From Bacteroidales bacterium (GTDB taxonomy: Bacteria > Bacteroidota > Bacteroidia > Bacteroidales > UBA7960): a DNA stretch of 64,000 nt. This document shows, in pieces, positions 1,351 through 64,000 of the stretch. The first letter of the stretch is position 1. Each line of letters starts with the position of its first letter. The stretch lies in assembly GCA_012521995.1 (NCBI GenBank), contig JAAYLH010000078.1, forward strand, positions 5,535 through 69,534, read 5' to 3'. Below the pieces are notes generated by a model. The model was not told the origin of the DNA. It was given only the letters and a program-made list of their open reading frames with translations, and searched no databases. The position numbers and the translations under genes were made by a program.

Positions 1351-2118
1351 CTATAATCTTTTCTCCAGCTCCCTGATCCTGGTGATGGGGATGCAGAACT
1401 CATATTCGTGCCCGTCTTTCATCAGGAAGCATTTACGTGCGAGGCGTCTGACGCGGGTGAGGTAGCTGAGATTGATGATGTTCGAGCGGTTGATGCGCAT
1501 AAAGCCTTTGTCGGGCAGGAGGTTTTCGAGCGCGCCCAGGTTCATCGTGACGGTCTCGTAGGTGTCGGGGCCCGTATATACCTTGGCATAGTTCCAGTCG
1601 GCCTGGATGTAAATGATGTCGGCCAGGTTCATCATCAGGAAGCCCCCGGCACAGGCCAGCTTGATCTTACGCTGATAGTCGACGGTATCGAGCAGGTTCA
1701 GGTATTTGGCCGAGCGTTCTTCCCTGGCGTGGTAGTCGAAAAAGCGCTGGATGCTTTTTTGCAGCTCTCGTTTTTCAATGGGTTTGAGCAGGTAATCGAA
1801 GGCAGCCGACTTAATGGCCTGTATGGCGAAGGTATCGTAGGCGGTGACAAAGATCACAGAAGGCTCGAAGCTGGCTTCCTTCAGGTCGCGTATCACCTCG
1901 AAGCCGTTGATGACGGGCATTTGGATGTCGAGAAAGACCAGGTCGGGTTTGGTCTGCAGGATTTGTTCCACGGCTTGCCCGGGGTCGTGTTCGGTGGCTA
2001 CCACCTCTATGCCCGGCTCATAGGCCAGCAATTTCTTCATCTCCTCGATGAAATGGAACTCATCGTCAACAATGGCGGCTGTGACGGCCGGCTCGTACAT
2101 CTCAAAGGCTCTCTTCAT
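1351..2118 (-). CDS. LytR/AlgR-family response regulator (REC + LytTR DNA-binding domain)
   Basis: Receiver motifs AAIVDDE, DLVFLDIQMP and FVTAY...KP. The C-terminal half (ADIIYIQADWNYAKVYT...FMRINRSNIINLSYL) is the LytTR signature. Confidence 0.9.
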   Translation of the reverse strand: MKRAFEMYEPAVTAAIVDDEFHFIEEMKKLLAYEPGIEVVATEHDPGQAVEQILQTKPDLVFLDIQMPVINGFEVIRDLKEASFEPSVIFVTAYDTFAIQAIKSAAFDYLLKPIEKRELQKSIQRFFDYHAREERSAKYLNLLDTVDYQRKIKLACAGGFLMMNLADIIYIQADWNYAKVYTGPDTYETVTMNLGALENLLPDKGFMRINRSNIINLSYLTRVRRLARKCFLMKDGHEYEFCIPITRIRELEKRL

Positions 2119-2538
2119 TGCGGCTGATTCTGATGGTTACTTTCGTGCCCAGTGGTCTTCCTTCCTCGCCAAACAAGTCCTGAATATCGGCAGAGAAATC
2201 CTTTTTATAATATTTTTTGTTAAGGTTATAAAATTCTTTCATAATTGCAAGCCCTTTTCCGGTGGAGACCGTTTTATTTTCAGCGGCTTGTTTTCTGCCC
2301 ACGCCATTGTCGGAGATGCTGATCAGCAGCCCTGCCCACCTGCCTCGCTGATCCCGGTTGCATCAAGAAAATGTCCGGTGAGGGTTATGGGTGAGGCAGG
2401 CATTGTGGTCACTGCGGTGGATTCATTCGGGAGGTTAAGATAACTGGTGTGGCCCGACCAGTTATTGGAACGCGAAACTGGGGTTTGGCATGGCAGCAAT
2501 GGTGGCCTACTTTCCATGAGCATAGGAGCCTTCGCCAT
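2102..2538 (-). pseudogene. Frameshifted 3' fragment of the cognate sensor histidine kinase (HATPase_c remnant)
   Basis: The frame ending at 2102 reads ...WAGLLISISDNGVGRKQAAENKTVSTGKGLAIMKEF...PLGTKVTIRIS: a G1 box (DNGVG), a G2-like GKGLA and the terminal GT.V.I motif. It overlaps the regulator start by 17 nt, as in intact HK-RR pairs. This frame is closed by TGA about 15 codons upstream of DNGVG. The only upstream ORF (2323..2538) is in another frame, and I could not recognise an H-box or a convincing N-box in it. No TM/sensor or His_kinase region exists before the repeat array at 2600. Confidence 0.55.
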
Positions 2539-2599
2539 GTAGGATGACTTTCCCCGCTTGTCAATGCAGCCTGGCAGGGAGGGTTTTCCTTTGGAGATT

Positions 2600-2698
2600 A
2601 GACGTACTTAAGACGTACTTAAGACGTACCTAAGACGTACCTAATACGTATAAAATACGTTTAAAGTACGTGTGAGATACGTTTGATCTACGTCTGAT
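2600..2698. repeat. Tandem array of nine 11-bp units with invariant ACGT core
   Basis: AGACGTACTTA x2, AGACGTACCTA x2, ATACGTATAAA, ATACGTTTAAA, GTACGTGTGAG, ATACGTTTGAT, CTACGTCTGAT. CpG at 2603, 2614, 2625, 2636, 2647, 2658, 2669, 2680 and 2691, exactly 11 bp apart. Confidence 0.95.
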
Positions 2699-2837
2699 CT
2701 TTGAGACTGATCGAACCCGGAAGAGGCCGCGGAAAAGTTTCACCGGGCTTTAGCCCAAGCCGATGTGAAGTGGGTTTCGATGAAAGTTCAGGCAGGGTTG
2801 GCCTTATTCTACGGGCAACACACAAAAAAGGGCATGG

Positions 2838-2879
2838 GAAAAAAGAAAAAGGCCGGCTCCTTTGCGGGGGCCGGCCTTT
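2838..2879 (-). terminator. Rho-independent terminator downstream of tRNA-Gln
   Basis: Minus strand reads AAAGGCCGGC-CCCCGCAAAGGA-GCCGGCCTTTTTCTTTTTT, starting 9 nt after the tRNA 3' end. Confidence 0.8.
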
Positions 2880-2887
2880 GGGCTGTG

Positions 2888-2958
2888 TTGACCGATCAGG
2901 ATTCGAACCTGAACAGGCAGAACCAAAATCTGCAGTGCTACCGTTACACCATCGGTCA
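2888..2958 (-). tRNA. tRNA-Gln (anticodon UUG)
   Basis: Minus strand TGACCGA TG GTGT AACGGTA GCAC T GCAGA TTTTGGT TCTGC CTGT TCAGG TTCGAAT CCTGA TCGGTCA A folds as a 71-nt cloverleaf with all four stems paired. Anticodon loop is TT-TTG-GT. CCA is not encoded. Confidence 0.9.
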
Positions 2959-3223: not shown

Positions 3224-6200
3224 ATGGACGAAAAGATGTACAAGAAGTGGAATAACATCCTGGCCTGGGCTGTATTTGCCATAGGGGCCACGGTATTTTT
3301 TTCAAGCCTGGAGCCCACGGCCAGTTTTTGGGATGCAGGCGAGCGCCTCTCGGTTTCGTATAAGCTTCAGATCGGTCACCCCCCCGGAGCGCCGCTTTAC
3401 CAGATGATGGCGCGAATGTTCTCGTTGCTGTCGTTTGGCGACACGAGCAAAGTGGCATTCTGGATCAACGCCATGTCGGCCACGGCAGGTGCCCTGACGG
3501 TCAGTTTCCTGTTTCGCACCATCACCATCCTTGGGCGAAAACTCATTGCCGACAAGGTGGAAGTGACCCGGGAGCGTGCCATCGCCATCTTTGGCAGTGG
3601 ATTTGTCGGAGCCCTGGCCCTTACTTTTAGCGACTCGTTCTGGTTTACCGCCGTGGAAGCCGAGGTATATGTCACCTCCCTGTTTCTTACTGCTTTTGTG
3701 TTCTGGTCGATCCTGAAATGGGAGGCCAGCGAGCATGAAAAGGACTCGCTGCGCTGGCTTGTGATGATCGCCTTTATCATAGGGCTTTCCATCGGGGTGC
3801 ACATGCTCAACCTGCTTGCCATCCCTGCAATCGTATTTGTTTATTATTTCAAGAAGTTCAACCCGACGCCCAAGGGGATTATCATCACGGGGATCATCTC
3901 GGTGCTTTTGCTGGGATTTATCATGAGTGTGCTGATTCCGGGCATCCTGATTCTTGACTGGAGGTTTGAGAAGTTCTTTGTCAATGTGCTGGGCCTGCCC
4001 TTCCATAGCGGTACGATCTTTTACTTTGCAGCCCTCATCGCCGCCATAGCCTATGGCTTGTATTACACCCAAAAGCACAGGAAGGTGGTGCTGAATACGG
4101 TCATCCTTGCCGTGACCTTTATCGTCATTGGGTATTCGTCGTTTTTCATGCTGGTTGTGCGTTCCAATGCCCAGGTTCCCATCAACGAGAATGCGCCCAA
4201 GGATGCCCTGGCGATGAAGGCTTACCTGGGGCGTGAGCAATACGGCTCGTGGCCATTGCTGAAGGGGCCCTATTACAATTCGCCCATGATGGATGCTGTG
4301 GACGGCAAGCCTGTCTATGGCAAGAACAAGGAGAGCGGGCGTTATGAGGTCATCAATCCCCGCACCGGCCTTGAACCAGTTTACCATCCTGAATTTATCA
4401 CCCTGTTTCCCAGGATGCACAGCAACCAGCAGGCTATTCACGCAAGTGGCTATGAGAGCTGGGGCAACGTAAATGGGCGGCCCATACGGTTTACAGGCCC
4501 CGACGGGCAGCAGCGTACCATCACAAAGCCTACCTTTGGCGAGAACCTTCGTTTCTTCTTTGCTTACCAGATGGGTCATATGTACTGGCGATATTTTATG
4601 TGGAATTTCGCCGGCAGGCAAAACGACATCCAGGGACATGGGAGCCCCGTGGAGGGCAACTGGCTGAGCGGCATACGTTTCCTCGACGAGGCGCGGCTGG
4701 GGCCGCAGGATAAGCTGCCCGAGAGCATGGCATCCAACCGTGGATACAATCGTTATTACATGCTTCCTTTGCTGCTGGGCATCTTTGGCATGCTCTTCCA
4801 GCTGCGGCGCCGCCCCGGCGACACCCTGGTGGTTGCCCTGTTGTTTTTCATGACAGGATTGGCCATTGTGATCTACCTCAACCAGACGCCTTACCAGCCC
4901 CGTGAGCGCGACTATTCGTACATTGGCTCGTTTTATGCATTCTCCATCTGGGTGGGGTTGGGGGTGATGAGCCTGTACAACTTCATTGCGAAGAAGCTCA
5001 ACGGTAAGATTGCCGGGGTGCTGGCCATCGTGTTGGGGCTTTTGATGGCACCGGCCCTGTTTGCCAAAGAGAACTGGGACGACCACGACCGCTCGCACCG
5101 TTACCTGGTGAGGGATGTGGCCAAGAACTACCTGGAGTCGTGTGCCCCTAATGCCATCATTTTTACCAACGGCGACAATGATACGTTCCCGCTGTGGTAT
5201 GCCCAGGAGGTGGAGGGCGTGCGCCCGGACGTGAAGGTTGTGAACCTGAGCCTGTTCAACACCGACTGGTATATCAACAATATGATGCGTCGCAAGATGT
5301 ATGATGCCGAGCCCCTGCCCCTGAGCATGGAGCCCCATCAGTATCGCGACGGGACGCGGGATTATGTGTATATGGTTGAGAGCGAGACGCTTCAGGGGCA
5401 TCAGGACCTGCGCAGCGTGATTAACTTTGTGGGCAGCGATAACCAGCGTACGCGCATCAGGACCTCACGTGGCTTTGAAGATTATTTTCCGACAAAAAAA
5501 TTCCGCCTGCCTGTTGACTCGGCCAAAGTAGTGGCCAATGGCACGGTGGCTCCCGAGGATGCACACCTGATCGTGCCTTATGTGGAATGGACTATGGAAG
5601 GTACGGGGTTGCAGAAAAGTCATATGATGGTGCTTGATTTTCTGGCCGCCAACAACTGGGAGCGTCCTGTGTATTTCGCCATCACTACGGGAGGAGATTC
5701 GTATATGGGCCTGGAAGAGTATTTCCAACTGGATGGTATGGCTTATAGGCTGGTGCCCATCCGCACGCCCGATCTGGAAGGGCAGCCCGGACGGATCAAT
5801 ACCCGCATCCTGTATGACAACGTCATGAACAAGTTTGAGTGGGGCAACATCAACGACCCCAGGGTTTACCTCAACGAAGACCACCGCAGGCTTACGGTAA
5901 ACTTCCGTAATATCATGCAGCGGCTGGCCCATACGCTGATTGATGAGGGCAAGGCGGATTCGGCTGTGGTGGTGCTTGATAAGGCCATGGAATTGATGCC
6001 CGAAACGCAGGTGCCCTACAACTATTTCAACCTGCTGATTGGAGAAGCATATTACCGAGCAGGGGAGGTGGAAAAAGGGGCAGCCATTGCAGGACGCATG
6101 CTGGAGCTGTACGCACAGGATTTGAAGCATTACTTTAGTTTTACAGGCCAGCGGGCCACTTTCCTCGAGCGTAACAAGCAGGAAGCTCTTGCGCTGATGC

Positions 6201-6476: not shown

Positions 6477-6947
6477 ATGATAGACGCCAGACAGATTGAA
6501 AGCATCGTAAATGAATACCTAGAGGGTACCGAAAAGTTCCTTGTGAGCGTGCATGTACACCAGGGCAACAGGGTGCAGGTGCTGCTGGATGGTGAGGGGG
6601 GTATTCAGGTTGGTGACTGCGCTTTGCTGAGCAAGCATATTGAGTCATTTTTTGATCGCGACAGGGAGGATTTTGACCTGGAGGTGTCTTCGGTAGGGGT
6701 GGGTTCACCCCTGAAGCTCAAGCGTCAGTATCGCCTCAATGTGGGCCGCAACATTATGGTGTTGGGACAAGACCTGAAGAAGACCCGGGGCAAACTGGCT
6801 GAAGTGCTGGAAGAAGGCATCCGCATTGAAAAGGAAAAAACCGGGAAGAAACCCAAAAAAGGGGAAATCCCTGAAGACCCCGTAGTCTTTTTTGCTTTCA
6901 ATGATATTAAGGAAGCCCGTATCCAGGTTTCGTTCAGCAAGGAATAA
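6477..6947 (+). CDS. rimP: Ribosome maturation factor RimP
   Basis: About 155 aa, immediately upstream of nusA-infB (canonical synteny). ...LVSVHVHQGNRVQVLLDGEGGIQVGDCALLSKHIE...DLEVSSVGVGSPL fits RimP. ATG 6477 preferred over TTG 6462. Confidence 0.85.
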   Translation: MIDARQIESIVNEYLEGTEKFLVSVHVHQGNRVQVLLDGEGGIQVGDCALLSKHIESFFDRDREDFDLEVSSVGVGSPLKLKRQYRLNVGRNIMVLGQDLKKTRGKLAEVLEEGIRIEKEKTGKKPKKGEIPEDPVVFFAFNDIKEARIQVSFSKE

Positions 6948-6990
6948 GAAGGAAAAACAAGAGGTTTAACAAGTAATTGACCGCAAGCGT

Positions 6991-8226
6991 ATGGAAAGTA
7001 TAAATTTGGTTGAGTCGTTTTCCGAGTTTAAGGAGTTTAAAAATATTGACCGCTCTACCATGATGTTGATCCTTGAGGATGTGTTCAAAAGCATGCTTAT
7101 GAAGAAATACGGGTCGGCAGATAATTTTGATATCATTGTCAATATCGATAAGGGAGACCTTGAGGTATGGCACAACAGGGTGATCGTTGAAGACGGTGAG
7201 GTGGAAGACCCCAGCGCCGAGATTGCCTATTCGGAAGCCATCAAGATCGAGCCTGACTTTGAAATCGGGGAAGAGGTATCGGAGCCGGTAAAGATGGCTG
7301 ACTTTGGGCGCCGCGAGATCCTGGCCATCCGTCAGAACCTTGCCTCTAAGATTCTTGAACTGGAGAAAGACAGCATATACAAGAAATACCAGGAGCAGGT
7401 GGGTGACCTTGTCACTGCCGAGGTATACCAGGTATGGAAAAAGGAGATTCTGGCCCTTGACGATGAAGGCATTGAACTGATCCTTCCCAAGACCGAGCAG
7501 ATTCCTTCGGATTTCTTCCGCAAGGGCGATACGGTGCGTGCTGTTGTGGCCCGCGTGGAGATTAAGAACAACAACCCGCTGATCATTCTTTCGCGTACCT
7601 CTCCCGTCTTCCTCGAACGTTTGTTTGAGCAGGAAGTGCCCGAAGTGTTTGATGGGCTGATTACCATCAAGAAGATCGTGCGTGTGCCCGGTGAGCGTGC
7701 CAAGGTTGCCGTAGAGTCGTACGACGACCGTATAGACCCCGTAGGGGCTTGCGTAGGCATGAAGGGATCGAGGATCCATGGGATAGTACGCGAGTTGCGC
7801 AACGAGAACATCGATGTGATCAACTTCACCACCAACCCCAACCTGTTCATCACCCGTGCCCTGAGCCCTGCCAAGATCAACTCGATCACCCTTGACGACA
7901 AGAACAAGCGTGCTGAGGTCTTCCTGAAGCCCGACCAGGTGTCGCTGGCTATCGGGAAAGGCGGTTTCAACATCAAGCTGGCAGGCTTGCTTACAGGCTA
8001 TGAGATTGATGTTTACCGCGATACCGACGTGGAAACCGAGGACGTTGACCTGATGGAGTTCAACGACGAGATCGAACAGTGGGTCATTGACGAATTTAAG
8101 AATATTGGCTGCGATACCGCTAAGAGTGTGCTCAATCTGAGCGTGGAAGACCTGGTGAAACGTACTGACCTGGAAGAGGAAACGATCCAGGAGGTGATGC
8201 GGATACTCAAGGCAGAATTCGAATAA
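6991..8226 (+). CDS. nusA: Transcription termination/antitermination factor NusA
   Basis: S1 domain ([10 protein letters not shown]) and KH domains ([26 protein letters not shown]; [12 protein letters not shown]). rimP-nusA-infB synteny. Confidence 0.97.
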
Positions 8227-8287
8227 AACCCTTAATTTTGCAAGATTTTTCGCCGCCTCCGAATATTTTGAAAACCTAAACCTGAAT

Positions 8288-11215
8288 ATGACAGAAGGTA
8301 CTGCATTAAAACGTTTAAGTAAAGTTGCAAGGGAATTTAACATTGCCACTACTACCATTGTTGAATTCCTTGGCAAGAAAGGCATTTCCGTCGAGAACAA
8401 TCCCAATACCAAGATCTCGGAGGATGCCTATCAGTTGTTGTTTAAGGAGTTCCAGCAAGAGAAGAAGCTAAAGGAAGCCACCCTTGGCAAGGGATTGGAG
8501 CATGTAGAGCGCAAGACCATCTCGCTGGAGCAGCCCAAAGGTACCCATGAAGCTGAGAAAGAAGGACCAGGTAAGGAAGGAGGAGCCCAGGAGAAGGAAC
8601 TGTTGATCAAGGACAGCAAGCCCACGGCAACGTCTCCTGCAGCCAGGGAAGAGGTGCAACTCCCTGGGCCCAAGGTAGTCGGCAAGGTTGAAGAGAAAAA
8701 AGAAAAGGAAGAAGCACCCAAGGAGGCTGAGGCGGTAAAAGAGGAGCCCAAGGCACCTAAGGAGGTTGCTCCCGTGGAACCCAAGGCACCCGATGCTGAA
8801 GTAGTTGCAGAAACCCCTGCAGAAGAGGAGAAGAAAGAGAATGGCGGCTTGAAGGTGCTCGGAAAGATTGACCTTGAAGAACGCAAGGGGCGGAAGAAAA
8901 AGGAAGTAAAGAAAGAAGAGCCGGCGGCATCAAAGGCTGCAGAAGAGCCAAAAGGGGCAGAGCCCGAAAAGCCCAAAGAGGAAGAACCCGTAGCCAAGGA
9001 AGAACCCAAGGCAGCAGAGGAGAAACCCAAAGAAGAAAAGAAGGAGATCTTTAAGATAGAACGCGCCAAGCTTGCAGGCCCCACCATTCTGGGTACGATG
9101 CAGTTGCCCGAGGAGAAGGAGGGCGGCAAGAAATTGGTGGCCTCATCATCGGATGCCAACAAATCGAAGCGCCGCAAGCGTAAGCGCATCAGCAAGAAAG
9201 AAAAGAGCGGTGAGGTGGATGTCACAGCCACCCATGGCGATAAGGGTGTACGCACTGATGCGGGTAAGCCGCGCAAAGCGCCCCGCCGCGATCATATAAA
9301 ACCTGAAGTATCGGAGGAGGAAATCCAGCGTCAGGTGCGGGAAACCCTGGCAGCCCTGAGCGGCACGGGGGGGAAGTCGAAAGCCTCCAAGCACCGCCGC
9401 ACCAAGCGCGACATCCTTGAGAAGAAGCGTGAGAAGGAAATGGAACGGGAAACTTCAGAAGAATCCGTACTGAAAGTGACGGAATTCATTCCCGCAAGCG
9501 AGCTGGCCAACCTGATGAATGTCAATGTGAACGAGGTCATAGCCACGTGTATGAACCTCGGACTCTTTGTTTCGATCAACCAGCGCCTTGATGCTGAGAC
9601 CATTACCATTGTAGCCAGTGAATTTGGCTTTGATGTGGAATTTGTTAGCCTCGACGAACAAAAGGAATTTGAAGAAGAGGAGGATCGTGAAGAGGATCTT
9701 GTATCACGAGCACCTATCGTTACGGTGATGGGCCACGTTGACCATGGAAAGACTTCATTGCTTGACCGCATCAGGCATACCAACGTGATTGGCGGAGAGG
9801 CAGGGGGTATTACCCAGCACATCGGTGCCTATTCGGTAGTGCTGGATTCAGGAAAGACCATTACTTTCCTGGACACGCCCGGTCACGAAGCCTTTACGGC
9901 GATGCGAGCCCGCGGGGCAAGGATCACCGACGTGGCCATTATTGTGGTGGCGGCTGACGATAACGTGATGCCCCAGACCGTTGAAGCCATCAACCACGCC
10001 CAGGCTGCCAACGTGCCCATTGTCATTGCTGTCAATAAGATCGACAAGCCTGCCGCCAACCCTGAAAAGGTGAAGGAAGAGCTGGCAAAGATCAACGTTC
10101 TGGTGGAAGACTGGGGTGGAAAATATCAGAGCCAGGAGATCTCGGCCAAAGCAGGCACCAATATTGACCTGCTGCTTGAGAAAGTACTGCTGGAAGCTGA
10201 AATGCTGGAGCTGAAAGCAAATCCTGCCCGCAGGGCTTTGGGTACTGTGATTGAATCATCGCTTGACAAAGGCCGCGGATACATTGCCACCCTCCTGATC
10301 CAGAATGGCTCGATGAAGGTTGGCGACATCGTTGTAGCAGGGGTGCATCACGGTAAGGTGAAGGCCATGTTCAATGAACGCGGGCAGCGCATTAAGGAAG
10401 CGGGCCCCGCTTCCCCTGTGCTTATCCTGGGTCTCGATGGCGCGCCCCAGGCAGGGGATACCTTCAACGTGATGGAATCGGAAAGCGAAGCCCGCGCGGT
10501 AACCAATAAACGCCAGCAGATATTTCGCGAACAGGGCTTGCGCACTCAGAAACATATTACCCTGGATGAAATCGGACGACGCATCGCCATTGGCGACTTC
10601 AAGGAACTGAATATCATCGTGAAAGGTGACGTGGATGGCTCGGTGGAGGCCCTTGCCGACTCACTGCTTAAGCTCACCACCGAAGAAGTGCAGGTCAACA
10701 TCATCCACAAGGCCGTCGGTGGTATTACCGAAGGCGACGTGCTGCTGGCCTCCGCCTCCAATGCGGTTATCATCGGATTCCAGGTACGCCCCTCGGCTGC
10801 AGCCCGTAAGCTGGCCGAACAGGAAGAGATCGACATCCGGCTTTACAGCGTCATCTACAATGCCATCAATGAGATCAAGTCGGCCATTGAGGGGATGCTC
10901 TCACCCGAGATTGAAGAAAAGATCACTGCCAACCTGGAGGTCAGGGATGTGTTTAAGATCACCAAGGTGGGTACCGTTGCGGGCTGTATGGTGCTTGACG
11001 GGAAGATCCACCGCAACTCGAACATCCGCCTGATTCGCGATGGCATTGTGGTTTACACAGGTACCCTGGGCTCCCTCAAGCGGTTTAAGGACGACGTGAA
11101 AGAAGTGTCCTCGGGATATGAGTGCGGTCTGAACATTGATCGCTTCAACGACCTGAAAGTCGGCGACATTATCGAGGCCTTCGAAACCATAGAAGTGGCA
11201 AGAAAACTGGAATAA
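8288..11215 (+). CDS. infB: Translation initiation factor IF-2
   Basis: GTPase motifs [24 protein letters not shown] and NKID. Long K/E/P-rich N-terminal low-complexity region, typical of IF-2. Confidence 0.98.
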
Positions 11216-21490: not shown

Positions 21491-21623
21491 GCTCCCCGGT
21501 CAATCCTCCTGTAATACCTTTACAGAAAAGAAACTCACTGGTCTCAGCAGATCATTGATTTTTATGTTCATTTCTATTTTATTAAGACCATAAGGGTTAT
21601 TCCTTCATAGTATTTACCTATTT

Positions 21624-21680
21624 AATACGGAGTTTATACGCTTTAAACCGTATAAACTCCGTATTAACTCCGTATTAACT
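21624..21680. repeat. 11-bp-phased TACGG/CCGTA unit array containing a perfect 17-bp inverted repeat
   Basis: AATACGGAGTTTATACG (21624-21640), 8-nt spacer, CGTATAAACTCCGTATT (21649-21665, exact reverse complement), then AACTCCGTATT repeated (21655-21665 and 21666-21676). CpG at 21628, 21639, 21649, 21660 and 21671. Confidence 0.95.
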
Positions 21681-22356
21681 TTGAAGCTTATATCGCTTTT
21701 TTTCCTGCCTGGTCAATGTATGCCCGGTTTCTTTTTTGGGTAAGATGGAATTTTTTTAAAAATTTTTTAAGATTTTTATTTCTGGTGAATTAATAAAATA
21801 TATATACGGAGGGCGTTTTGTCGTAGCTAAAAATAAATCTGGATGCTTAAGGCAAGGTCGGTTATTGATTTTTTCCGGTCCTCACGCAGCGTTTGGGCGA
21901 GATTTCGCGTCTAGAGTAATGTAAGCAAGATCGCAATTGTATTTGCTGACAAGAGTTCTTTGTTATCATGAATTGTAATTTGACCATTAGACCTGTTTCT
22001 TAGGAGCGGAAATTTCTCCTTTTTTATATTTTCCGTTTTTTCAGGTTTTGTATGTGTTTCAGGGATACACGGTTATGGCCGCACAAACTTTCCCCGGAGG
22101 TTACTTTGGGTAAAGAAGCTGCAAACAACATTAACCAAACCAACTAACCCGCGGCCATTTCCCTGGAACCTTTTTCTTTCGGCTTGTTTTCCTAAAGTTC
22201 ATATGTGCTTTTTCGCTAAGGCCAGGTTTTTCCCCTGGTCTGTTGCGGGATTGTACCAGGCGGATGCCGGTTTTGTGGCATCCGCCCGTGAGGGGTGACG
22301 GCTTGGGCCGCCATAGGAACGCTCTTTGAGGTTTTTGAAATGCTTTTTTTTCGGGA

Positions 22357-38925: not shown

Positions 38926-39104
38926 ATTGTTTTTTTTACAAAATTAACATAAATGGCCATTTGTGCATGAAAACCATTTCCCTGGCCTTGAAAACGCAAA
39001 CAGCAGTTTTCTCTTTTCGGCCTGATCATTTCTTATCCCGCAAAGGCATAATTCTTAAAGTTCATAACAGGAGAAAATCAACTGATAAATTTAACCAAAT
39101 CTCA

Positions 39105-39203
39105 ACCGTATCATGACCGTAAAAATACGGTCATGATACGGTCATGATACGGTCGAGATACGGTTGAGATACGGTCGAAATACGGTCGAAATACGTTTTA
39201 CGT
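39105..39203. repeat. 11-bp-phased ACCGTA/TACGG unit array (2 inverted + 7 direct units) containing a perfect 17-bp inverted repeat
   Basis: ACCGTATCATGACCGTA (39105-39121), AAAA, TACGGTCATGATACGGT (39126-39142, exact reverse complement). Direct units follow: TACGGTCATGA x2, TACGGTCGAGA, TACGGTTGAGA, TACGGTCGAAA x2, TACGTTTTA. CpG at 39107, 39118, 39128, 39139, 39150, 39161, 39172, 39183, 39194 and 39201. Confidence 0.95.
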
Positions 39204-63624: not shown

Positions 63625-63752
63625 GCCGCCCCTTCCTGCATTTCTTTTTTGATCCTTATCCCTACGGGATCGCCACCTTCCTGAATATTCTTTTCAGGGG
63701 AGTCAACCCTTCATTGATCCCTTCACGGGATCTTTCGCTTTTTTATTTTAAC

Positions 63753-63808
63753 CGTATCATAAACGGGTCATAAACTTTTTAGAACGGCTAAGACCCGTTT
63801 ATGATACG
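63753..63808. repeat. Perfect 17-bp inverted repeat built from 11-bp-phased CCGTA/ACGG units
   Basis: CGTATCATAAACGGGTC (63753-63769), 22-nt spacer, GACCCGTTTATGATACG (63792-63808, exact reverse complement). CpG at 63753, 63764, 63785, 63796 and 63807. The left arm shares AACCGTATCAT with the array at 39104. Confidence 0.95.
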
Positions 63809-64000
63809 ACTGAAGTAAGACCCCTAATAAAGCCCGAAGGGGGGCTGAATCCACCCCAAACCTGCTTCAGCGACCTGCCATGGTCTTGTACGGCAGGGCC
63901 ACATACGAACCTGGCACGAGGCATACAAGAGGATGGTACGAGCGTGCCTGAATGAAAAATAGAAAAATAAAAATGAAAAATAATAAAAATGAGATAAAAG

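Follow-up and report, generated by a model that had tools for sequence, protein, structure and literature searches.

The DNA considered here, called the window throughout, is a stretch of 64,000 nucleotides from a Bacteroidales bacterium of the lineage UBA7960 (assembly GCA_012521995.1, contig JAAYLH010000078.1, positions 5,535 to 69,534), and the element in question is a short intergenic tandem array, A1 (2600..2698, without strand), in which nine 11-bp units share an invariant ACGT, as established by parsing the sequence, by Tandem Repeats Finder (TRF) and by shuffled controls. The genes flanking A1 are those for tRNA-Gln, a TMEM260-like protein and a LytTR regulator. To its left, on the minus strand, lie a response regulator with receiver and LytTR domains (1351..2118) and the remnant of a LytS-type histidine kinase (2108..2332), which retains only the last 75 residues (620-694 of the 695-residue homologue P0361, 65% identity); kinase homology runs from 2332 down to 2108 and nothing matches upstream of the stump. 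The kinase partner of the regulator is thus a pseudogene; the regulator gene, for its part, is intact, with the same sequence in 23 contigs. To its right lies tRNA-Gln (UUG; 2887..2958, minus strand) with a hairpin-plus-T-run terminator at ~2836-2882 on the minus strand, read from the sequence. The ~550 bp in between (2333..2886), from the kinase stump to the 3′ end of the tRNA, are lineage-specific non-coding DNA that carries A1, shows no kinase homology and has no counterpart in relatives. A1 is a real, non-random feature that appears unconnected to the neighboring LytTR gene, and it is best explained as belonging to a genome-wide class of helically phased repeat elements that lie between genes.

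Judged from 80 orthologous loci that were anchored on the TMEM260-like gene, tRNA-Gln and TMEM260 form a conserved pair, and the synteny shared with all relatives breaks off precisely where tRNA-Gln has its 3′ end (2884-2887). Everything to the left of it, namely the array, the kinase stump, the LytTR regulator and an S8/PKD peptidase, is lineage-specific. Because homology stops at the tRNA end, A1 lies in lineage-specific DNA at a rearrangement junction, a break like those at sites of island integration or at rearrangement hotspots. An integrase attachment or arm-site array at tRNA-Gln would fit the synteny break, but neither an integrase nor a repeat of the tRNA end was seen in the available sequence, and this candidate is unproven. 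Orthologous TMEM260 loci contain no counterpart of A1 in relatives of up to 82% TMEM260 identity, and ~150 kb from relatives with a 66-82% identical TMEM260 protein contain no arrays. In relatives of ~55% identity, 7-bp arrays (AATTACG, TACGAAT, ATTGACG, AAGTTAG; 3-9 copies) stand directly upstream of tRNA-Gln (loci L255, L256, L259, L262, L263, L272), and 11-bp arrays (TTTCCTTCGTC, TTAGTCTTCCG) stand ~310 bp downstream of it (L264, L269 at 3322-3422); the latter are independent arrays in a position analogous to that of A1.

The units of A1 are, in order, AGACGTACTTA (twice), AGACGTACCTA (twice), ATACGTATAAA, ATACGTTTAAA, GTACGTGTGAG, ATACGTTTGAT and CTACGTCTGAT. A previous sequence-only reading of this DNA had parsed 2600-2698 exactly into nine 11-bp units with a CpG at 2603+11n (n=0-8), had seen conservation in the core only and had hinted at unit-wise slippage, and all of this holds: ACGT recurs at 2602+11n, TRF gives a period of 11, identical units lie side by side, and the 15 differences between neighboring units all fall in the 7 non-core positions and none in the 4 core positions, for which the probability under an even spread is (7/11)^15 = 0.001. 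As a control for the phasing of CpG, 200 dinucleotide-preserving shuffles of the window were made. The longest period-11 CpG run was 3 in 141 of them, 4 in 55, 5 in 3 and 6 in 1, as against runs of 9 and 7 in the real window, so that the real arrays lie far outside what shuffling produces. A point additional to it is that A1 is not a plain direct repeat but dyad-symmetric: units 1-4 (2600-2643) have the CGTA orientation, unit 5 holds the palindromic center ATACGTAT (2644-2651), where the orientation flips, and units 6-9 (2655-2698) have the TACG orientation. The complete dyad element (2595..2700) is bounded by 12-bp terminal inverted repeats, AGATTAGACGTA (2595-2606) and TACGTCTGATCT (2689-2700), which are part of the array's own dyad. 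As single-stranded DNA it folds with -22.6 kcal/mol (z = -5.7), and none of 200 shuffles folds equally well. The array units contain no A-tracts. The suggestion that an 11-bp period places all cores on one face of the helix is right for neighboring units and wrong across the array, since at 10.5 bp per turn the phase drifts by ~17 degrees per unit and by ~137 degrees over nine units, unless the DNA is underwound. The layout agrees with cooperative binding, one site to each helical turn, as had been proposed.

Three other arrays, likewise without strand, are found in the window. A2 (21624..21680) consists of ATACGGAGTTT-type units, two forward and three reverse, with a 19-bp-stem palindrome at 21622-21665. 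A3 (39105..39203), between the terminator of a GT2 gene and the promoter of yicC (-7 box at 38946), consists of two reverse units, the center GACCGTATTTTTACGGTC and seven to eight forward ATACGGTCnnn units. A4 (63753..63808) is an inverted repeat with two units per arm (CGTATCATAAACGGGTC / GACCCGTTTATGATACG) and lies in a 231-bp block (63626..63856), made up of a terminator hairpin, A4 and a second hairpin, that is found in the source species only. The four-locus family of CpG-phased 11-bp arrays recognized by the sequence-only reading is confirmed, as A2, A3 and A4 hold the CpG register: the spacings are 11, 10, 11, 11 in A2 and 11, 21, 11, 11 in A4, and in A3 the CpGs stay in phase from 39107 to 39194 apart from one 10-bp step, so that the register of 11 is broken by one 10-bp or 21-bp step at each dyad. 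All four arrays are intergenic and dyad-symmetric, with units that flip direction at a palindromic center and a strong hairpin in each (z = -6.9 for A2, -5.9 for A3 and -7.9 for A4, besides A1). TRF detects three strong period-11 arrays in the window, all with TACG/CGTA despite unrelated unit flanks. No flanking sequence is shared among the four loci in BLAST, which returns only matches of 11-13 bp; they are therefore not copies of one element, and dispersal of a single mobile element inside the window was rejected. What the four have in common is the period, the architecture and a TACG(G/T) core, and nothing more. A known RNA family was rejected on the Rfam search, in which tRNA-Gln alone passed the gathering threshold and E ≤ 1 added only spurious microRNA-hairpin matches on A2. 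Strings like the Bacteroidetes -7 box (TAnnTTTG) occur at the arrays as TACGTTTG at 2678 and TAACTTTG at 21676; mimicry of a promoter was rejected, the box at the end of A2 being kept in neither of the two A2 orthologs described below. A further six CGTA/TACG motifs, with spacings of 8, 2, 9, 11 and 12, lie at 7710-7752 within a long open reading frame (ORF; 6991-8226 on the plus or 6934-8412 on the minus strand), and this sole such cluster in coding sequence is probably due to chance. An A-rich degenerate 7-bp tandem repeat (AATGAAA / AAAAATn) lies at 63951-63992, and its position is kept in L312 and L313 downstream of the ClC gene.

What is retained at such a site can be seen by comparing sister species, the comparison that tells most about the arrays. 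In relatives with a 77-78% identical YicC protein, the GT2-yicC spacer is 105 bp long and consists of a terminator and a promoter with no array, whereas in the window and in the sister loci L305 and L306 (YicC 85-86%) it is 339-406 bp long, with an 11-bp array in the corresponding position. Unit sequences differ completely (GTTTAACCGGT in L305, CATCTCCGTAC and TTTAACCGTAG in L306, TCGACCGTAT in the window), and the three species have in common the center ACCGT-N6-ACGGT and a one-sided expansion; in L306 the cores and the orientation switch are kept and the hairpin is not significant (z = -1.0). In the TPR-sigma spacer, A2 is 0.67 identical to its counterpart in L315, against 0.52 ± 0.03 for shuffles, and the flanks on both sides are at chance (0.50, 0.51). 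L315 has at this site a perfect 58-bp palindrome of A2-type units, in which TACG at the center has turned into TTCG on each of the two arms alike, and L316 has two units left, a decayed array. Fold z-scores for the four window arrays and the orthologs in L305 and L315 range from -5.7 to -11.7. The A4 block is a clean 231-bp insertion, absent from relatives with an 89-91% identical ClC protein, with a possible but imperfect 7-8-bp target duplication CC(G/A)CCCC; it sits directly after the ClC stop codon and adds a hairpin-plus-T-run terminator and a further GC hairpin. Among assemblies of the same species there is no variation in copy number or sequence in A1 (L001, L002, L005, L241), A3 (L011, L013) or A4 (L309-L311). 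The variable-number tandem repeat behavior that the sequence-only reading had thought worth checking is thus not seen in the 3-4 independent assemblies available for each, and a contingency locus was rejected on the same ground, with the proviso that the short-read contigs L004 and L006 break at or inside A1 and may hide heterogeneity. No further copies of the A1, A3 or A4 blocks occur among the compared loci. It appears that the arrays are not hypervariable and that some persist through speciation with core, register and dyad under constraint, others being recent gains.

How widespread are such arrays? When 185,579 species genomes were scanned for the exact pattern of five TACG at period 11, at least 119 loci were found, and all shares of genome loci given here refer to the 119 matches listed. 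They include 59 from Bacteroidota, 12 from Rhodobacterales and 5 from Ignavibacteria, several genomes having multiple matches. This phylum-level enrichment is observed, and such arrays are a common repeat type in Bacteroidota. A TACGGAG unit recurs in Prevotella, Bacteroides, Saprospiraceae, Ignavibacteria, a metagenome-assembled genome (MAG) of Dadabacteria and A2 of the window, and another recurrent unit, CCTACGTATAT, is found in Paludibacteraceae. Arrays are often compound, next to other 11-mer or 7-mer arrays. As to orientation, 65 in other genomes are direct-only and 35 were classed as dyads, some of which count as such only through a partly palindromic unit. In 677 kb of protein-anchored DNA from relatives, tandem repeats had periods of 7 (22 arrays), 11 (7), 21-22 (4), 12 (2) and 10 (1), which puts the peaks at 7 and 11, with 7-bp arrays co-occurring with 11-bp arrays; a shuffled version of the same sample contained none. 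The feature common to 11-mer units in these unbiased relatives is CpG (~10 of 12 units, tallied by eye) rather than TACG, and in the clade to which the window belongs the core is TACG(G/T). The same pattern has 90 matches in IMG/VR, a number that is uninterpretable without controls.

Several genomes carry dispersed 100-330-bp modules with conserved flanks: CALAUA01 (L016, L017, L021, L026), JAFZXE01 (L040, L048), DASRWB01 (L028, L051) and JADKCC01 (L032, L066). Those of JAFZXE01, a Bacteroidales MAG, and JADKCC01, a Saprospiraceae MAG, are composite, with 7-mer runs and two or three 11-mer arrays (for example AGGGGTATAGG or GTGGGAACTnn, then GATACGGAGTT), and adjoin 100-200 bp of conserved unique sequence with promoter-like TAnnTTTG boxes; their arrays may be transcribed within a multi-copy RNA gene or a MITE (miniature inverted-repeat transposable element). 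A near-identical array of TGCCATACGCT repeated five times is present in several Rhodobacteraceae genomes of the Rhodobacterales (L022, L073, L082, L084, L130), which suggests a conserved site of its own kind, e.g., origin or regulatory iterons.

The genes next to the arrays are heterogeneous. The 107 flanking ORFs comprise 168 Pfam families, none of which occurs in more than three ORFs; no regulator, integrase, transposase or partition protein recurs among them as a cognate adjacent gene, and LytTR is absent from the recurrent families. The TACG strand of the array agrees with that of co-directional neighbors in 8 cases and opposes it in 11, and 15 arrays lie between divergent gene pairs as against 3 between convergent ones. 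The lack of strand bias and the excess of divergent pairs argue against a strand-specific RNA element and for a DNA-level feature of promoter-bearing spacers. The arrays lie 118-141 bp past the stop codon of the upstream gene, usually just beyond its terminator, and are therefore probably not transcribed from that gene. A strand-specific RNA element, whether a 5′ or 3′ untranslated region, a Rho site or a protein sponge, was rejected for these two reasons. In this respect the arrays differ from TAACTGA heptamers, which together with the short tandemly repeated repetitive (STRR) sequences are known from cyanobacteria, Beggiatoaceae and some Bacteroidetes; both are likewise abundant, intergenic and phylogenetically patchy and have a period of 7, and TAACTGA repeats are strand-oriented just upstream of start codons, suggesting a role at the RNA level (MacGregor, PMC4679880).

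Which model accounts for these properties? Conservation limited to the core, a one-turn register and an optional dyad are best explained by recognition on double-stranded DNA by a protein encoded elsewhere, and persistence in randomized spacers, absence of strand bias and lack of a cognate neighbor gene lead to the same reading, the Pfam-diverse flanking ORFs being the reason for placing the putative factor elsewhere. We therefore favor, with a confidence that stops short of even, the possibility that the arrays are a double-stranded-DNA platform for cooperative binding or wrapping by such a factor. An outline of the proposed process is as follows. An array would originate from a short dyad seed, two CpG-centered half-sites (TACGT or TACGG) about one helical turn apart, which would be lengthened by slippage of whole 11-bp units, supplying the raw material. 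Selection would then hold three things only, namely core, 11-bp register and dyad, and the other 6-7 positions in each unit would drift and turn over. The outcome would be a row of equivalent sites, one per helical turn, for a symmetric or oligomerizing DNA-binding or wrapping protein. Such a reader may be of the global or nucleoid type, or else a wrapper akin to topoisomerases at transcription-unit boundaries, and would not be the adjacent LytTR regulator.

Protein-bound repeats of comparable layout are familiar. The 11-bp iterons of plasmid R1 parC are bound by ParR, and omega heptads, MetJ met-boxes (AGACGTCT) and Arc subsites 11 bp apart are further examples; in such ribbon-helix-helix operators, symmetric dimers bind cooperatively to short units set in a row, in either orientation (omega) or at CG-centered palindromic cores (MetJ). 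The comparison with parC and ParR made by the sequence-only reading is apt for the tandem 11-bp iterons, of which A1 has nine exact units, and fails on context: parC and ribbon-helix-helix sites adjoin the gene of the binding protein on plasmids or in defined regulons, whereas the arrays are chromosomal with random neighbors. Adjacent to A1 there is no parM/parR-type, partition or ribbon-helix-helix gene, and the surroundings are chromosomal housekeeping synteny common to many Bacteroidota. Direct-repeat operators of the OmpR/PhoB family (Pho boxes, the 11-nt units of Streptomyces PhoP, ArcA boxes with 11-bp center-to-center spacing) share the head-to-tail 11-bp spacing, a variable unit number (2 to ~9) and 5-7 conserved positions per unit, but they overlap or abut the promoters of coherent regulons, in contrast to the window arrays with their orientation switch, unrelated neighbors and, for A3, a distance of 160-260 bp to the nearest -7 box. 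Fur-like proteins polymerize on hexamers in either orientation, and two-fold-symmetric wrappers such as gyrase are also known. The likeness to all of these systems is one of layout, and every comparison that turns on gene context went against membership.

Several observations weigh against protein recognition. Both the binding itself and the identity of the protein are what we infer from sequence. The neighboring genes are functionally random, unlike the regulon of a transcription factor, and A3, given its distance from the -7 box, is not in an operator position. Since A1 and A4 are lineage-specific and the A2 ortholog has decayed in L316, the arrays are dispensable. The dyad is not a property of the class, as most TACG arrays elsewhere are direct-only, and the generality of the TACG core is partly circular, as the genome scan was defined by TACG; unbiased relatives share CpG instead. 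At 10.5 bp per turn nine units leave a single face of the helix. Finally, the mirrored change and the perfect 58-bp palindrome of L315 can arise without selection, by template switching from arm to arm.

The last of these points leads to the alternative that survives best, which is doubtful but deserves to be taken seriously: the arrays may be neutral, slippage-born minisatellites (long simple sequence repeats), in which a chance duplication or quasi-palindrome was expanded by slippage and template switching and persists because it is harmless, the 11-bp period and the CpG core reflecting a mutational or structural bias. It would readily explain why adjacent units are identical or nearly so and similarity decays along the array, why lineages are patchy, with none in the ~150 kb of relatives mentioned above, why A4 is missing in sister species and A2 decaying in one of them, and why neighboring genes are random; perfect palindromes such as that of L315 are expected from quasi-palindrome template switching. 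It does not readily explain why the A2 palindrome can be aligned between species when both its flanks are randomized, why the A3 site keeps period, core and dyad in three species despite complete turnover of units, or why none of 15 changes in A1 touched the core. The sharp preference for periods of 7 and 11 over 8-10 and 12 would also need a cause, and independent assemblies show no copy-number variation.

A class of 5-11-bp long simple sequence repeats was reportedly described by Mrazek, Guo and Shah in PNAS in 2007. The window arrays have the head-to-tail short units, the intergenic location and the several sequence families of one period that mark this class, but showed none of its copy-number polymorphism in the assemblies compared. 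Tandem repeats of 4-11 bp are, unlike those of 1-3 bp, not suppressed in prokaryotes (Huang and Mrazek, PMC4060949). Bacterial tandem repeats that have been called enigmatic have units constant in length (20-21, 52 nt) and varying in sequence, with short characteristic motifs, and a polymerizing protein has been suggested for them (Subirana and Messeguer, PMC8161180). These too are intergenic, with many families per genome of one length but different sequence, a short conserved motif per unit, a helix-related period (20-21 nt being two turns) and no known mechanism. The window arrays differ from them (20-23, 52 nt; PMC8161180) in having a period of 11 bp, or one turn, in being short (5-9 units) and dyad-symmetric with one conserved CpG-centered 4-5-mer, and in the positional conservation between species with turnover of units described here. 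The sequence-only reading, in stating that no described element class has these properties, therefore went too far, in view of these repeats, long simple sequence repeats and the BrickBuilt element of Porphyromonas (PMC4596501). The arrays are a one-turn, CpG-core, dyad-symmetric form of the known but poorly understood constant-period bacterial tandem repeats, and that variant was not described in the literature searched.

It is also possible, though unlikely, that the long imperfect palindrome itself is what matters, whether as a cruciform when the DNA is supercoiled or, in RNA or single-stranded DNA, as a hairpin. It might then serve as a topological sink, as a signal for replication or repair, or as RNA structure at a 3′ end. 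The folding of the four window arrays and their orthologs in L305 and L315 far below shuffles points in this direction, as do the compensatory mirrored change in L315 and the position of arrays shortly after the upstream stop codon, usually just past the terminator. The A3 ortholog of L306, however, keeps its cores and switch without a significant hairpin, and direct-only arrays outnumber dyads elsewhere. The strand bias expected of an RNA element is not seen, arrays past intrinsic terminators are probably untranscribed from the upstream gene, and the 11-bp register would be left unexplained.

A mobile origin, in which the arrays are remnants or miniatures (MITE or foldback) with tandem transposase-binding sites as their ends, dispersed by transposition and then decayed, is quite unlikely. 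For it speak the clean A4 insertion with its possible target duplication, the 12-bp terminal inverted repeats of A1 and the rearrangement junction beside a tRNA gene, the dispersed modules with conserved flanks in CALAUA01, JAFZXE01, DASRWB01 and JADKCC01, and the precedent of BrickBuilt, a MITE bearing a minisatellite of 23-nt repeats in Porphyromonas gingivalis (Klein et al., PMC4596501). Like the arrays, BrickBuilt belongs to Bacteroidales, is strictly intergenic, has units with conserved and non-conserved positions and a period of about two helical turns, and has housekeeping neighbors without a common function; unlike them, it has a 23-nt rather than an 11-bp unit, promoter activity, a shared leader and tail, inverted-repeat ends and 19 copies per genome (PMC4596501). 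Several copies with a common leader and tail are found in other genomes, though not within the window and the compared loci: the four window arrays have no common flank, and the A1, A3 and A4 blocks have no more copies there. No transposase was noted in the annotated parts of the window, the positions of A2 and A3 are stable across species, the target duplication is imperfect and the terminal repeats simply belong to the dyad of the array. Support for an origin as MITE or foldback element comes from A4 and from other genomes; the window arrays themselves do not provide it. REP/BIME elements, which are short imperfect palindromes that a RAYT transposase mobilizes and that number hundreds of near-identical copies, were rejected as the arrays are palindromic but not near-identical; a RAYT-like Y1_Tnp gene, with unrelated GGTGCAGCGCACC palindromes, is present only in the relative L314.

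Very unlikely, lastly, is the proposal that A1 is an autoregulatory operator of the adjacent kinase/LytTR operon, the other arrays being further LytTR targets. LytTR operators are imperfect pairs of 9-bp direct repeats with a 12-13-bp spacer (21-22-bp period), AlgR sites contain CCGT, and LytTR regulators are numerous in Bacteroidota. The next intact gene beside A1 is indeed a LytTR response regulator, and units 6 (TACGTTTAA) and 8 (TACGTTTGA), 22 bp apart, resemble what we take to be the paired 9-bp sites of this family and its PlnC/D motif TACGTTAAT. In A1, however, the core occurs in every 11-bp-spaced unit and half of the units are inverted. The sequence-only reading had placed the array 60-160 bp upstream of the operon, which is wrong: it lies 268 bp from the end of kinase homology (2332) and 482 bp from the LytTR ATG, in unrelated DNA at a synteny break, beyond a kinase cut down to a stump, and no TAnnTTTG promoter box lies between A1 and the operon. 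With these facts the positional argument for an autoregulatory LytTR site falls. Nor do other loci help: in phmmer searches a LytTR gene was found anywhere in the locus (~4 kb) in just 2 of the 119, in one of which (L043) the array is at the 3′ end of the gene, the neighbor census shows no enrichment, and the window has one LytTR gene for four arrays.

Some observations concern the surroundings of A2 and A4. Between A2 and the ECF sigma gene lies a ~400-nt non-coding block (21880-22290; L315 6627-7000, L316 6588-6962) that, globally aligned, is 87% identical to L315; long stretches of it are invariant in L315 and L316. The proteins on either side reach only 86-87% identity, and the spacer around the block is randomized. 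There is no Rfam match even at E ≤ 1, and among the predicted helices is one whose stem is conserved and whose loop varies (CCCCGG...CCGGG). The block may be an unannotated non-coding RNA or a long leader of the sigma operon. The dCas12f-sigma guide system (PMC13472631), considered since A2 precedes that sigma gene, is unrelated to tandem 11-mers. Downstream of ClC lies a hotspot of variable cargo, with an aquaporin and an acetyltransferase gene here and an ABC ATPase, an S9 peptidase or a Y1 transposase in relatives. In L310 (10298-13637), as compared with L309, an extra segment with an HTH_Tnp_1 ORF, an ECF sigma gene and a second aquaporin/acetyltransferase copy follows the first, a strain-level structural variation just past the end of the window. 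In L314 (7795-8566; ClC 82% identical), the Y1_Tnp (RAYT/IS200-like) gene directly follows ClC and its flanking palindromes are of the types GGTGCAGCGCACC and GGTGCGCTGCACC; the appearance is that of a REP/RAYT system, one without relation to the 11-bp arrays.

Tandem repeats of constant period occur widely between the genes of bacteria, and no function has been generally accepted for them. New here are the one-turn period with a minimal CpG-centered core, the mirror-symmetric architecture, and the finding that sister species keep position, core, register and dyad while the remainder of the units and the surrounding DNA are replaced. On this evidence the repeat type seems to be selectively maintained, probably as a protein-binding platform. 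On the practical side, the arrays break short-read contigs and invite over-interpretation as operators of adjacent genes. The cross-species pattern, together with the TACGGAG arrays carried by cultured Bacteroides strains such as B. oleiciplenus YIT 12058 (L129) and B. timonensis AP1 (L038, L131), makes the question of what reads the repeats experimentally approachable. If no protein reads them, they would offer a clean model for the shaping of non-coding DNA by slippage and by repair templated on palindromes. More speculatively, and with considerable doubt, Bacteroidota and perhaps other phyla might possess an uncharacterized DNA-binding or wrapping factor that polymerizes on CpG-centered half-sites one underwound turn (11 bp) apart, the arrays being slippage-born boundary, topology or nucleoid-organizing elements under selection for core, register and dyad only, an iteron-like chromosomal system without an adjacent cognate gene. 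If a protein does read the arrays, it would be a new global factor, organizing DNA or regulating, of Bacteroidota, which as a phylum are central to the microbiomes of guts and digesters.

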